A DNA stretch of 39,809 nt, from NCBI GenBank assembly GCA_032249395.1, contig JAVVFY010000007.1:1-39809 (forward strand), read 5' to 3'. Source of the stretch: Candidatus Aenigmatarchaeota archaeon. Lineage in GTDB: Archaea; Aenigmatarchaeota; Aenigmatarchaeia; CG10238-14; SpSt-28. Positions 9,001 through 12,000 of the stretch are shown here, in pieces. Numbering within the stretch: position 1 is the first letter of the stretch; the number at the start of each line of letters is the position of its first letter. Position numbers: made by a program.

Positions 9001-12000
9001 CTTAGCTAAAAACATAGCTTTTAAAAGCAATGAAGGTGCTGTAATAGCAAATTTGGAGAATTACGGTTTGCCGAATTGTGTTATTTTGAGATCGGATGGC
9101 ACTGGATTGTATTTAACTAGCGATTTGGGACTAACTGTTCATAAGTTTAATAAATACAAGTTAGATAAATCGATCTGGGTGGTTTCTACTCAGCAATCTC
9201 TACATTTTAAACAACTCTTCAAATTGTTAGAATTGCTAGGTTATGAGTGGGTTAAGGATTGTTATCATTGCTCTTTCGAACATGTTAATTTACCAGAAGG
9301 CAAAATGTCATCTAGAGAAGGAAGAGCAGTTTTATTGGATGAAGTAATTAGCACGCTTGAAAAAAGAGTAAGAGAAGAAGTAGAAAAAAGAAATCCTAAA
9401 AAAGACAAGAGAAAAATTGCTATAGTTAGTAGAAAAATCGCCATAGGAGCAATAAAGTATTCTATTTTAAAAATAAGTCCAGAGGATCAAATAGTTTTTG
9501 AATGGGAAAGGATGTTAAAGTTAGATGGAAACACAGGACCTTATATTCAATATGCGTTAACAAGATGCAAGGGAATTCTTAAAAAAGCAGGAAAATTTGA
9601 GAGAAATTTTTATCCAAAAAGTATGAAAGAAGAGGAGAGATTACTTATTAAAAAGATTGGAGAGTTTCAATTTATAATACAAAAGGTTATAAAGGAAATG
9701 AAGCCTTATTATTTAGCTAACTATCTTTATGAACTATCCACCCTTTTCAGCGATTTCTACGAAAAAGTGCCTGTAATAAAGGAAGAAGATAAAGATATAA
9801 GAAATTTTAGATTGACTTTAGTAGAAGCAACGCAAAAAGTTCTTAATCTCGGACTTAATTTATTGGGTATAGAAGCTCCAGAGTTTATGTAAATATTTAA
9901 ATCTCTCCACCCCTCTCTTTTAACCAGTTTTCTACAGCTTTTCTTATTGCAACTATTTTAATCTCACCATTTGGTAAAGTTCTTCTTATTGTTACAGGAA
10001 CCATCATTTTTTTAAACTCCTCTTTCGCAAGTTCTATAGGATCTGTTTTGTCGCTTTTAACTAAAACTGGGGCCCCTAATGCAATTTGCAAAGCTCTCGC
10101 ACTTATGATTCTTGCGACCTCAAATCTAGTCAATCTATCTTCTGGCCATTCCATAAAAAACCTCCTAAGGTTTAAATTGGGCTATATTTTTGAATAGGTC
10201 TACGTGAGCAAGAAACATTCTTCTGCAGCAATACCTTTTAACTTTTAAATCATCTAATATTTTTGCAGGATCTTCTCCATCTTCTACCCTTTTTTTAAAT
10301 AATTCGTATAAATGTCCTATCACTTTTCCGCAAGTAAAGCATCTAACAGGGAATAGTATATTTACCACCTTCAATTACAGTATTTATTAATTTTGTACAT
10401 ACTAATTTAAAAGTATTGATTAAAAAATTTTATGAAGAGTGCTAAATCCACTTTAAAAAATGAATTTAAACTTAAACAAAAAGCTTTAAATGCTTTGAAA
10501 AAAGTTATAGACCCAGAACTAGGGGCGAATATAGTAGATCTGGGTCTAATTTATGACATAAAAGTTAATGAAAATAGCATAGATGTTTTAATGACTTTGA
10601 CGTATATTGGTTGTCCTCTTGGAAATTTTCTTATGTTTGAAGTGGAAGATAAATTAAAAAAAGCAGGATTTGAGAATGTTAACATTAGTCTAACATTCGA
10701 CCCACCTTGGACACCGGAAAGAATGAGCGAAAAGTTAAGGAAGAAGTTTGTAATTTAAATTAATATATTTTATTTTTTATAAAAATTTTTTTAATTGTTC
10801 CTTTTCAATATTCTACTTACATTTCAAGAACTTGATTACATCTTAGTAAGCTTTTAAGTTGAAAAATAGTGGATTAAAAACATATGCTCGTAAAACTTTA
10901 GACTATATCTATGTTTTTGAAGCAATTTATTTGAATTGCATATAAACAGTCCATCTTCTTTAGTTTTTTAGCTGCAACATGAACAAAATAATATTAAAAT
11001 GCATTGCAATTTATTTACAATGCATACAAAGGGATTCAGCAGAGTCGTTAATTGTATTATTTTATAGATTAGTAACTTCTACTTTTTAGAATGAGGAGAG
11101 AATAATTGAGAAATGGTATGTATTAAAGTTACATTTTTAGAAAGCTGTATTAGTTGGTTTAATAGTTAAGTAGCTTACACTATTTACATTAGAGATTTTA
11201 AAACTACTACTTTTTGTGTTCTAATCTGCAAATCAACACATGTTTGGAAAACCCAATGTAAATAGCATTACCACAATAAGGGCAAATACCTTCAGGTTCT
11301 GGCAACTTTCCTTTTGCCATCATACCACCTATTTATTTATTAATGGCTAGGTTTAAATTTAATTAAGCTATAAGCCAATCCCTCTTTAACCAAAAGATCT
11401 TTTCATCACTTTTCTGCTTCTTTTCTTTTTCCTCTTCTTTAACTTCTTCTTTTTCCTCTATTTTATTTATCATAATGTTCTTTCTTATAGTTTCGGCGAT
11501 ATTTTTAAGTTCTTCAGGCTTTATTTCTATAGGTTTATTTTCTATTAGTGGGATTTCGTTTTCAAAATAAGGATAAATTCTTAAGTGTAGGTGCTCTATT
11601 TGAGAAGGCATATGAGCAATACTGATTGCTAGTGGCGACAAAGCTTTTTTAATACTTTCAGCTATTTTAACAGCTATAAGAAACATTTCTCTAGATAGAT
11701 TTTCATCTTCTTCGAAAGACTTGACATGTTTTTTTGGCATAACTAGACTCATTCCTTTACTCCTCGGATGTATATCTAAGAAAGCTAAAAAATTTTCATC
11801 CTCATAAACGATTTCGCTTTTAATTTCTTTTCTTGCTATTTTACAAAAAACACATTCCATGATGCTATTTAAACCTTAAATTTTAAAACAAGAAGTATAA
11901 AAGTATAAGAATGCATCAGGTGGGCTCATGCCGGAAGTAAGAAAACCTAGGGAAGGCAGTCTAGCATTTTACCCTAGAAAGAGGGCTAAGAGAATCTACC

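Follow-up and report, generated by a model that had tools for sequence, protein, structure and literature searches.

Possible Shine–Dalgarno-fixed translation starts that require only a middle U, and a putative start-codon frameshift in aRF1, in an order of DPANN archaea

Archaeal start codons are taught as AUG, GUG and UUG. The window analysed here, a 39,809-nucleotide stretch of DNA from a Candidatus Aenigmatarchaeota archaeon, carries the gene for RNA polymerase subunit N, rpo10, with ATA at the position of the initial Met. The source is a tiny hot-spring archaeon of the DPANN group. Where does translation of such a gene begin, and is the answer peculiar to one gene or one genus?

The rpo10 start in the window and across the order

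Read from the proposed ATA start (10357..10359, minus strand), the rpo10 coding sequence (10165..10359, minus strand) has 64 codons and a stop. A Shine–Dalgarno (SD) sequence, GGTGG (10365..10369, minus strand), lies 5 nt (TAAAT) ahead of the ATA and pairs with the genome's own 16S tail, GGATCACCTCCT. The residues after the ATA are L-F-P-V-R-C, and the NCBIfam model for RNAP subunit N (NF003089) matches from residue 2, above its cut-off. The GTG inside the SD (10368-10366, minus strand) is in frame and would be chosen by gene callers, while an ORF lister picked an in-frame TTG five codons ahead of the ATA (10372..10374, minus strand), which is not conserved in the genus. Because GTG and TTG both lie in frame upstream, the window gene by itself leaves the start undecided. 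A comparison of the window with Rfam gave two tRNAs and nothing else.

Among 88 readable rpo10 loci of the order, the Met position is ATG in 55, ATH in 30 and TTG in three; the 30 non-canonical codons are ATA, ATT or ATC, and none is CTN, GTN, ACG or AAG. As the first-pass annotation had reported, all eight loci of the window's genus lack ATG (ATA in four, ATT in three, ATC in one), and ATG is found in 9/9 loci of the family's three other genera. Its proposal that the genus initiates on N-U-N codons fixed by the SD gains support as regards initiation, but not as regards the genus, since ATH codons occur in 10 further genera and five further families. Of the loci scored, all 29 with ATH and 24 of the 54 with ATG have an SD of at least four exact bases ahead of the codon. 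The spacing in those 29 is 5 nt in 24, 6 in four and 4 in one, so that a spacing of 'always five', as first described, does not hold.

In seven genomes (four genera, three families) no ATG, GTG or TTG follows the upstream stop of rpo10. Two of them, G049 and G051, read GGTGA TGTAG ATT; the in-frame TAG directly ahead of the ATT separates it from the GTG of the SD, which therefore cannot be the start. The others are G018, G031, G032, G033 (spacing 6) and G075 (spacing 4). The G018 gene, already singled out for this lack and now confirmed, is one codon shorter, with its ATT 6 nt after the SD, and has an in-frame TGA. Elsewhere an ATG lies two codons upstream of the ATH (G011, G017) or a TTG one codon downstream (G012, G015, G016).

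Further genes with SD-led N-U-N codons

Nine genes of the window's genome (G000) have ATA, ATT, CTC, CTG or TTC five bases after GGTG(A/G): rpo10, rtcB, metRS, a proteasome subunit (by Pfam), a PD-(D/E)XK/Cas4-like gene, an M50 peptidase and three without a Pfam match. This agrees with the earlier tally of about nine, except that the identity of one as 'pilin-like' was not upheld. In the window, rtcB (30394..31851, minus strand; 485 codons) would start at ATT (31851-31849), 5 nt after GGTGG (31857..31861, minus strand); at the same SD spacing G012 has TAA ATG and G015 has ATG. Within the genus, ATT is also present in G011 and G018 and ATC in G017, the G013 gene being cut by a contig edge. The four ATT/ATC and two ATG genomes are as first listed.

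For metRS, CTC or CTA occupies the start position in five of six readable loci of the genus (the first count was five of seven) and ATG in G012; the N-terminus is missing in G018, and G014 and G017 gave no match. All 15 metRS loci that have an SD and no ATG show N-U-N at SD+5. In the 16 scored rows, a middle U occurs in the preceding codon four times and in the following codon once. Canonical starts are absent in G113, which has ATT after an SD without GTG, and in G062, with CTA at spacing 4. The position of the N-U-N codon tracks the SD, not the protein alignment: in metRS it varies from 3 to 6 codons ahead of the conserved motif's first aromatic residue.

A further case in the window is RNase HII, whose start region (16233..16247, minus strand) comprises the SD GGGGGTGC, 4 nt and ATT (16235-16233). 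The GTG within the SD does not share the gene's frame, and no ATG, GTG or TTG occurs from the upstream TAA to the catalytic DE motif, a reading valid only if a 23-nt hairpin insert directly after the DE codons (16183..16205, minus strand) is spliced out. The insert is probably a bulge-helix-bulge intron. Both it and the ATT layout recur in G017; G011, G012, G013, G015 and G018 have ATG.

When SD-led ORFs without a canonical start were sought blindly in G000, in G015 and in 140 kb of G018, N-U-N stood at spacing 5 in 10 of 10 (9 of 9 without one likely frameshift), with a middle U in the next codon in one of 10. Order-wide loci gave only 6 of 10. G006, in which GGTG(A/G) leads no start at spacing 4–6, gave no such case at spacing 5. 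Spacing 4 is the commonest among canonical SD-led starts (44, compared with 22 at 5), and spacing 5 among the non-canonical ones. Three candidates were set aside: CTC at C13:8404 and TTA at C4:12733 of G000 were judged not to be starts, and an apparent forced UUU start at C1:473468 of G015 (TAG then TTT, spacing 5) has an out-of-frame SD-led ATG upstream and is probably a frameshift. The paired-ATG and SD-centred screens used here replaced an alignment-start screen in which shadows of UTRs and RNA genes predominated.

The initiator tRNA of G000, G015 and G006 is ordinary, with a CAU anticodon, three G-C pairs and the GGGCTCATAACCC arm, which removes an altered anticodon as the cause; it is split by an intron and was missed by ARAGORN at default settings, the relaxed-intron run giving noise. 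The loss of the aIF1 zinc cysteines, noted in the first-pass annotation, is real in G000 and G015 (G006 retains them) but does not account for the non-AUG starts: outside the genus the knuckle is intact in 12 of 12 ATH-rpo10 and 13 of 13 ATG genomes read (30 searched, 29 matched, 25 read). More widely, 36% of archaeal aIF1 proteins, that of P. abyssi among them, lack the knuckle (PMC6237735).

An alternative, recognized from the outset, is that the GTG of the former SD is itself the start. Initiation would then be SD-independent, and the old Met, now internal, would by drift have become Ile, Leu, Phe or Val. All nine G000 genes and 24 of 29 ATH rpo10 loci have this GTG in frame, and the metRS Leu codons resemble protein-level replacements. 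Moreover, stops between GTG and N-U-N (two in 24 rpo10 loci with spacing 5, none in 15 metRS loci, none in the nine G000 genes) are rarer than ahead of canonical spacing-5 starts of G000 (4 of 10 or 6 of 22 in two screens); because they are rare, GTG may serve as a back-up start. As the start proper we consider it improbable. The explanation fails in orthologues without a usable GTG, namely the seven rpo10 genomes and two metRS genomes, to which RNase HII of G000 and G017 can be added. In addition, none of these loci has ATG in place of the GTG, whose flanks remain SD-like; drift would hardly confine rpo10 to ATH in 30 loci; and the hydrophobic codon of metRS shifts with the SD within a tail rich in K, R, A, P and E.

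We therefore favour SD-fixed near-cognate initiation, combined with the start-codon switch in aRF1 described below, and give this explanation as a whole a probability of roughly 0.8. We observe directly the sequences, how they are conserved and where canonical starts are lacking; what ribosomes make of them we infer from sequence. In the SD-using lineages of this DPANN order, near-cognate starts would retain the middle U, and a strong SD would put the codon into the P site, 4–6 nt, mostly 5 nt, after GGUGA. The ordinary initiator tRNA (CAU) would insert Met there, so that the proteins would begin where their ATG orthologues do. Initiation at AUA, AUU and AUC is very probable, and that at the two-mismatch codons CUC, CUA, UUA, UUC and GUA is probable. 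We see about even odds that the rule holds in its broadest form, in which throughout the order the SD sets the start and only a middle U is required, with aRF1 controlling itself at its first codon by a start-codon frameshift.

The opening of the aRF1 gene

The gene for the release factor aRF1, which the first-pass annotation had missed, lies on contig C1, beyond the window. It was matched once per genome; the protein scores 430 bits with TIGR03676, against a cut-off of 235, and has the NIKS and YxCxxxF motifs and a catalytic loop GGM/GGW-S-Q instead of GGQ. In G000 the first canonical codon comes 42 codons after the motif GRxTEL. Of 102 loci, 56 open with a cassette, SD-ATT-stop, and encode the protein in the +1 frame; the other 46 all have ATG. 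The stop is TAA in 34, TAG in 21 and TGA in one, with C next in 43, and the SD spacing is 5 in 45, 4 in five, 3 in one and 6 in one, the SD being weak in four. Only two cassettes have a later in-frame ATG ahead of GRxTEL. Among the 56 is the G106 locus, which clusters with genus g1 and probably belongs to a stray contig; G116 and G032 supply two additional cassettes. Widened-search candidates in G101, G102, G108, G109 and G111 have no SD and an ATG downstream, and were dropped.

An A precedes TTT in all 56 cassettes and ATG in 16 of 45 orthologues, and codon 2 begins with AA, AG or GA in 56 of 56 and 29 of 45 respectively, kin not being independent in either comparison; in those 29 a 'stop' would show in that frame too.

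According to the reading that we favour, the ribosome would assemble on AUU with the stop codon in the A site. Plentiful aRF1 would terminate at once; with little of it, the initiator tRNA, being weakly paired, would slip from AUU to UUU before any peptide bond is made, yielding Met-Ser/Asn/Lys/Asp, collinear with the ATG orthologues. Since aRF1 would compete with the frameshift, we propose that it controls its own synthesis. Stop-sensing autoregulation through a +1 shift seems to us quite likely, and the exact route, a slip of the initiator tRNA, somewhat favoured.

The slip might instead occur in elongation. A mini-ORF of three or four codons, begun at the GTG of the SD or at some other weak start, would be translated to the AUU, and peptidyl-tRNA-Ile would slip to UUU at the stop, in the manner of tRNA-Leu in prfB. 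A GTG three codons before the ATT in 44 of the 56 cassettes (it is lacking in 12), an ATG two codons before it in the stop frame of four loci outside the set (L310, L344, L345, L392) and the parallel between AUUU-stop and the CUUU-GA of prfB speak for this. However, the stop frame lacks any canonical codon in 10 cassettes, an upstream ORF being possible in the other 46; G114, alone among the 56, has a stop (TGA) directly before the ATT; the SD is at initiation distance from the AUU, compared with 3 nt in prfB (PMC10798248, in extract); and a start within the SD would have no SD of its own. We regard the mini-ORF as rather unlikely. Alternatively, UUU might be a plain weak start (spacing 6; 5 in some other orders), with AUU-stop a by-product or passive decoy and no feedback. 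UUU is an N-U-N codon exactly at the orthologues' ATG, codon 2 of the ATG orthologues already has the AA, AG or GA beginning in the 29 counted above, and cassettes with spacing 4 are present in G291, G338, G263, L349 and L389, in four of which (L349, L389, G291, G338) UUU falls at 5 with the GTG in the aRF1 frame. This too is unlikely, because ATTT is fixed in 56 of 56, whereas rpo10 varies among three and metRS among seven codons, because no cassette has a non-stop triplet after it, and because the cassette is kept over four families with at least 6–10 state changes on the tree.

Assembly errors, RNA editing or splicing that make or mask an AUG are most improbable, even though the genomes are metagenome-assembled, G000 contains a few apparent single-base indels as well as probable introns in mRNA, and the G018 rpo10 sits in an A5 run. 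The same motifs recur across dozens of species. Two RNA-library contigs, from two studies, are collinear over the aRF1 cassette and, like one DNA contig from another study, show it without gap or change, DNA carry-over or rare forms being possible; RNA run X15 had no coverage there. Because a bulge-helix-bulge scan around the cassette missed both positive controls, its scores (19 of 55 cassettes, 16 of 46 ATG controls) carry no weight.

Consequences and comparison with known systems

Under AUG/GUG/UUG rules an RNA polymerase subunit, MetRS and aRF1 could not be made in many of these genomes. If the proposed reading is true, SD pairing overrides archaeal codon checking even where as few as one or two base pairs remain, which offers a direct handle on local scanning by aIF1/aIF2, and start calls limited to ATG, GTG and TTG misplace N-termini and remove the stop-codon-reading domain of aRF1. 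Archaea would also control a release factor by feedback, along a route other than that of prfB. Feedback by a one-base slip in a release-factor gene is known from bacteria and giant viruses.

The literature searched held no description of archaeal SD-led ATH starts or of an aRF1 frameshift. Reviews give only AUG, GUG and UUG as archaeal starts (PMC4705826); Haloferax ribosome profiling saw about 30% near-cognate starts among the putative alternative ones but set them aside (PMC7261190). The aEF1A mRNA of P. abyssi, which is the structural model, has the register GGUGA-5 nt-AUG (PMC6237735), the same as here. In bacteria, SD-led AUU or AUA starts occur in E. coli infC and pcnB (10.1101/063800, in extract) and in S. 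aureus infC, cvfC1 and ccpN (PMC13009471, in extract). As there, a strong and correctly spaced SD would here hold a near-cognate start in place; a usable AUG, GUG or UUG is lacking in seven rpo10 and two metRS orthologues, but not in the window's rpo10 or rtcB. The bacterial starts lower or tune output, in infC for autoregulation (PMC4705826), whereas those proposed here are archaeal, affect several housekeeping genes per genome, flip with ATG between sister species and seemingly extend to the two-mismatch codons CUC, CUA, UUA and UUC. In E. coli, CUC and CUA belong to the 0.1–1% class of initiation (10.1101/063800, in extract).

The aRF1 cassette shares with prfB (RF2) a class-I release-factor gene, a conserved NUUU slippery word, a stop in the A site, a +1 coding frame, an upstream SD and mostly C next after the stop (PMC10798248, in extract). 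It differs in that aRF1 is omnipotent and archaeal, all three stops are used, and the P-site codon is AUU, the first or at most the fourth codon, at initiation distance, not an internal Leu; neither an internal SD 3 nt ahead of the slippery codon nor, in the 10 cassettes without a canonical start or in G114, an upstream ORF with its own start is found. Mimivirus R726 and Megavirus mg280 likewise are eRF1/aRF1-family genes that must pass their own stop, with an autoregulatory reading, but they are viral and use internal readthrough and frameshift; that recoding is stated, in the part of the paper available, to be absent from eukaryotic and archaeal homologues (PMC3521657). SCARF resembles the proposed slip in acting at the step from initiation to elongation, aided by a slow second codon; as described in extract (10.1101/2023.02.15.528768), it is mammalian and a pervasive noise or stress response, whereas the aRF1 cassette is fixed and conserved, with a stop as second codon, in an essential gene.

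Codons at the Met position of rpo10

The 16S rRNA tail of G000, the 753 kb genome (25 contigs) of which the window is contig C7, is GGATCACCTCCT, and its Shine–Dalgarno (SD) sequence is therefore AGGAGGTGATC. In the 385 genes with ATG that could be paired between G000 and its genus mate G015, SD-led ATG starts of G000 lie most often 4 nt behind the GGTGA register (n = 44), followed by 5 nt (n = 22), 6 nt (n = 16) and 7 nt (n = 10). Among the SD-led ATG genes of G000, a stop codon immediately precedes the start in 11 of 26 canonical cases at spacing 4 and in 4 of 10 at spacing 5. 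The sequencing runs that contain window DNA are for the most part hot-spring metagenomes.

The first-pass annotation had reported that several genes of this genus carry, behind an SD, a codon with a middle U (N-U-N) where Met is expected, and had read this as SD-fixed initiation. The observation is confirmed for rpo10 (10165..10359 from the proposed ATA start, minus strand), whose leader reads GGTGG TAAAT ATA CTA TTC CCT, with a GTG and a TTG in frame upstream. In a survey of the 19 genomes of the family (17 matches), the Met position was ATA, ATT or ATC (ATH) at all eight genus loci and ATG at the nine others. The search was extended to 80 of the 99 genomes of the order outside the family, of which 74 matched; all 75 matches were retrieved, giving 92 loci, of which 88 were readable. 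The Met-position codon was ATG at 55, TTG at 3 and ATH at 30, with no other codon present. The ATH loci are spread over 11 genera and six families, so the phenomenon is not confined to the genus, as had been proposed. An SD is present at all 29 scored ATH loci, compared with 24 of 54 ATG loci, and its spacing is 5 in 24, 6 in four and 4 in one.

In the four unscored loci (G073, G080, G083 and G092, second copy; L487, L491, L501 and L504), rpo10 opens with ATG-led codons but has left the frame before the first CxxC reaches its second Cys, in G080 after a TTTTAG run; this is possibly a further programmed shift, an intron or a shared error.

In seven rpo10 genomes the stretch from the upstream stop to the conserved P-V-R-C holds no ATG, GTG or TTG; these genomes are in this sense forced. 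In G049 and G051 the leader is GGTGA TGTAG ATT, in which a stop separates the GTG from the ATT; in G031, G032 and G033 it is GGAGGTAG, where GTG is absent. G075 is forced at spacing 4, and G018 at spacing 6, within an A run where an indel is possible. Among the 80 of 552 metagenome loci covered, L018–L020 show the pattern of the genus. L029 (CTG), L058 (ACG) and L089 (ATA), on higher-GC contigs of other archaea (G+C 0.47–0.51), are also forced; rpo10 may be a hot spot for non-AUG starts throughout the archaeal domain.

N-U-N codons in other genes and the GTG within the SD

In G000, rtcB, metRS and six further genes have ATA, ATT, CTC, CTG or TTC 5 nt 3' of GGTG(A/G). Most of their G015 orthologues have ATG or TTG, and G015 has non-canonical cases of its own in genes named from aligned sequence (CysRS, ATT; MinD, ATT; a phosphomannomutase-like gene, TTA). 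Because the sister species differ in start codon, starts switch between ATG and N-U-N. At a cut-off of 1e-50, metRS was matched in 58 of 118 genomes. Among the best 30 loci of these, three of which lack the N-terminus, the 15 that have no ATG and carry a GGTG-like SD in the spacing-5 register all have N-U-N there (TTA 4, CTC 3, CTA 2, ATT 2, ATA 2, TTC 1, GTA 1), 3–6 codons 5' of the conserved motif and within a tail that is otherwise polar. A canonical codon is absent from metRS of G113 (ATT behind AGGGA) and G062 (CTA, spacing 4); in G063 a TTG is present 3' of the stop.

When ORFs of at least 100 codons that are SD-led but lack a canonical start were scanned for blindly, N-U-N stood at spacing 5 in 10 of 10 cases from G000, G015 and part of G018 (nine of nine without one likely frameshift), in two of nine at spacing 4, and in five of ten at spacing 6, three of the five being aRF1. 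In pooled loci of the order the spacing-5 figure was six of ten. In G006, where canonical starts led by GGTG(A/G) are absent at such spacings, the scan returned no case at spacing 5. G006 (whole genome) and L010–L014, from the sister genus g3, have no GGTG(A/G)-led starts at spacing 4–6 and have an AT-rich, TATA-like stretch about 25 nt 5' of ATG; this genus seems to have dropped SD initiation together with non-AUG starts and the aRF1 leader described below.

In RNase HII of the window and of G017, ATT lies 4 nt 3' of GGTGC. The GTG of this SD is out of frame, and ahead of the catalytic motif canonical codons are absent; the ATT start presupposes that a 23-nt hairpin insert (16183–16205, minus strand, in the window) is spliced out. 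Short inserts of this kind, of about 20–23 nt, also occur in ValRS; the loci concerned beyond the window are G000 C1 near 85550 and L545. The inserts disrupt the frame where catalytic motifs lie, can be folded in helix–bulge layouts, and are probably bulge–helix–bulge introns in protein-coding genes. At C8:1363, C8:10088, C4:12733, C4:21820 and C3:66340 of G000, genes that are otherwise conserved seem to lose their frame by one base close to A/T runs; these places may be assembly errors or slippage sites.

The named alternative, that the GTG inside the SD is the start, may hold for rpo10 and rtcB of the window taken on their own, but this codon is unavailable in the seven forced rpo10 genomes. 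Stops between the GTG and the N-U-N codon are nevertheless rarer (2 of 24 rpo10, 0 of 15 metRS and 0 of 9 G000 genes) than ahead of canonical spacing-5 starts of G000 (4 of 10 or 6 of 22, in two counts), and the GTG may for this reason be a back-up start or a stepping stone. By analogy, the poor performance of codons with two mismatches in E. coli (0.1–1%, against 1–2% for AUA, AUC, AUU and CUG; 10.1101/063800) would count against N-U-N initiation. SD-fixed N-U-N initiation is supported mainly by the forced rpo10 and metRS cases and by the aRF1 leader.

The initiator tRNA is ordinary, with a standard anticodon arm; inserts at non-canonical positions interrupt its gene (G000 C1 near 106700; G015 C1 near 353440), which ARAGORN misses. 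The loss of the aIF1 zinc cysteines, previously linked to the unusual starts, is seen in G000 and G015. It is not the cause, because all four cysteines are kept in 12 of 12 ATH genomes read from other genera (and in 13 of 13 ATG genomes), and the cysteines are missing from 36% of archaeal aIF1 (PMC6237735). Most simply, good placement of the SD would be enough to relax start fidelity.

A start–stop leader in aRF1

The SD scan of G000 also led to the release factor gene aRF1 (C1:130590, beyond the window; a match to TIGR03676), whose leader reads GGTGA ATTTA ATT TAG C. The protein frame is +1 (TTT AGC), a TAA lies in frame ahead of TTT, and the earliest canonical codon is 42 codons 3' of the GRxTEL motif. 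Matches came from 105 of the order's 118 genomes; 104 loci were retrieved and 102 read. The SD–spacer–ATT–stop cassette is present at 56 (TAA 34, TAG 21, TGA 1), the next base being C at 43, G at 6, T at 4 and A at 3; the remaining 46 have ATG, mostly exactly where TTT stands. With G116 and G032 added (G094 unread), the count is 58 of 104, in four families. An unrooted tree of the 102 fragments requires at least 10 changes of state (six forced by strong branches; shuffled mean 34), which is compatible with an old cassette repeatedly lost. L195 (contig C113 of G106) clusters inside genus g1, although G106 is of another family and has a second aRF1; the contig is probably mis-binned.

Across 371 genomes of the phylum 79 matched the pattern, and among seven matches inspected outside the order G263 has the cassette without a canonical start and G291 and G338 have it at spacing 4, with a GTG in the aRF1 frame. 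A GTDB scan that yielded at least 119 stretches added three further TGA cassettes, three records under the label Nanohaloarchaea/Nanohalarchaeota, and L313, in which the extra T is absent and ATT in frame; the named matches listed are mostly labelled Ca. Aenigmatarchaeota. The cassette is spanned without gap or change by RNA-library contigs from runs X16 and X17 and by one DNA contig from X4, although rare forms stay hidden in contigs and DNA may have been carried over; X15 leaves it uncovered. The catalytic loop of aRF1 (G000 C1:130591-132210, L138, and loci of the order) has GGM-S-Q, in some GGW-S-Q, in place of GGQ, and in g1, g4 and several other genera an intein directly follows GGM.

The spacer and following codons vary. 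A precedes TTT in 56 of 56 cassettes versus 16 of 45 ATG loci, and a stop-forming triplet follows the ATT position in 56 of 56 versus 29 of 45, kin not being independent. The AUU is at spacing 5 in 45 of 56, as in other weak starts. We infer that Met-tRNAi is placed on AUU as the ribosome assembles, with the stop codon in the A site, where aRF1 would terminate; at low aRF1 levels the weakly paired tRNA would slip from AUU to UUU, the sole +1 codon retaining the middle pair, which would explain why the ATT is never ATA, ATC or ATG.

Slippage of an elongating tRNA-Ile after a mini-ORF of 3–4 codons would retain this feedback, and is favoured by the GTG kept in 44 of 56 cassettes and by the ATG two codons 5' of ATT in L310, L344, L345 and L392. 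Such a mini-ORF is unnecessary, because 12 cassettes lack GTG, 10 lack any canonical codon in the stop frame, and in G114 a TGA abuts the ATT. Plain initiation at UUU, with which the spacing-4 cassettes outside the order agree, would entail no feedback.

Comparison with known systems

Searches of open PMC and bioRxiv literature turned up neither N-U-N starts in DPANN archaea nor autoregulation of aRF1. A term search of two recoding reviews (PMC8211752; the first 300,000 characters of PMC5009743) did not find aRF1, and matched passages of PMC6514570 do not mention frameshifts. Near-cognate alternative starts were observed by profiling in Haloferax and set aside (PMC7261190), and giant-virus-type autoregulation is said to be absent from archaeal homologues (PMC3521657). 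The proposed N-U-N starts are like bacterial SD-led AUU and AUA starts in combining a near-cognate codon with an SD, here in archaea (PMC13009471; PMC4705826). The aRF1 cassette resembles giant-virus release factors (PMC3521657) and bacterial prfB, but differs from prfB in not needing an upstream ORF and in lacking its 3-nt SD spacing (PMC10798248); for a slip at the start codon itself there is a mammalian precedent (10.1101/2023.02.15.528768).
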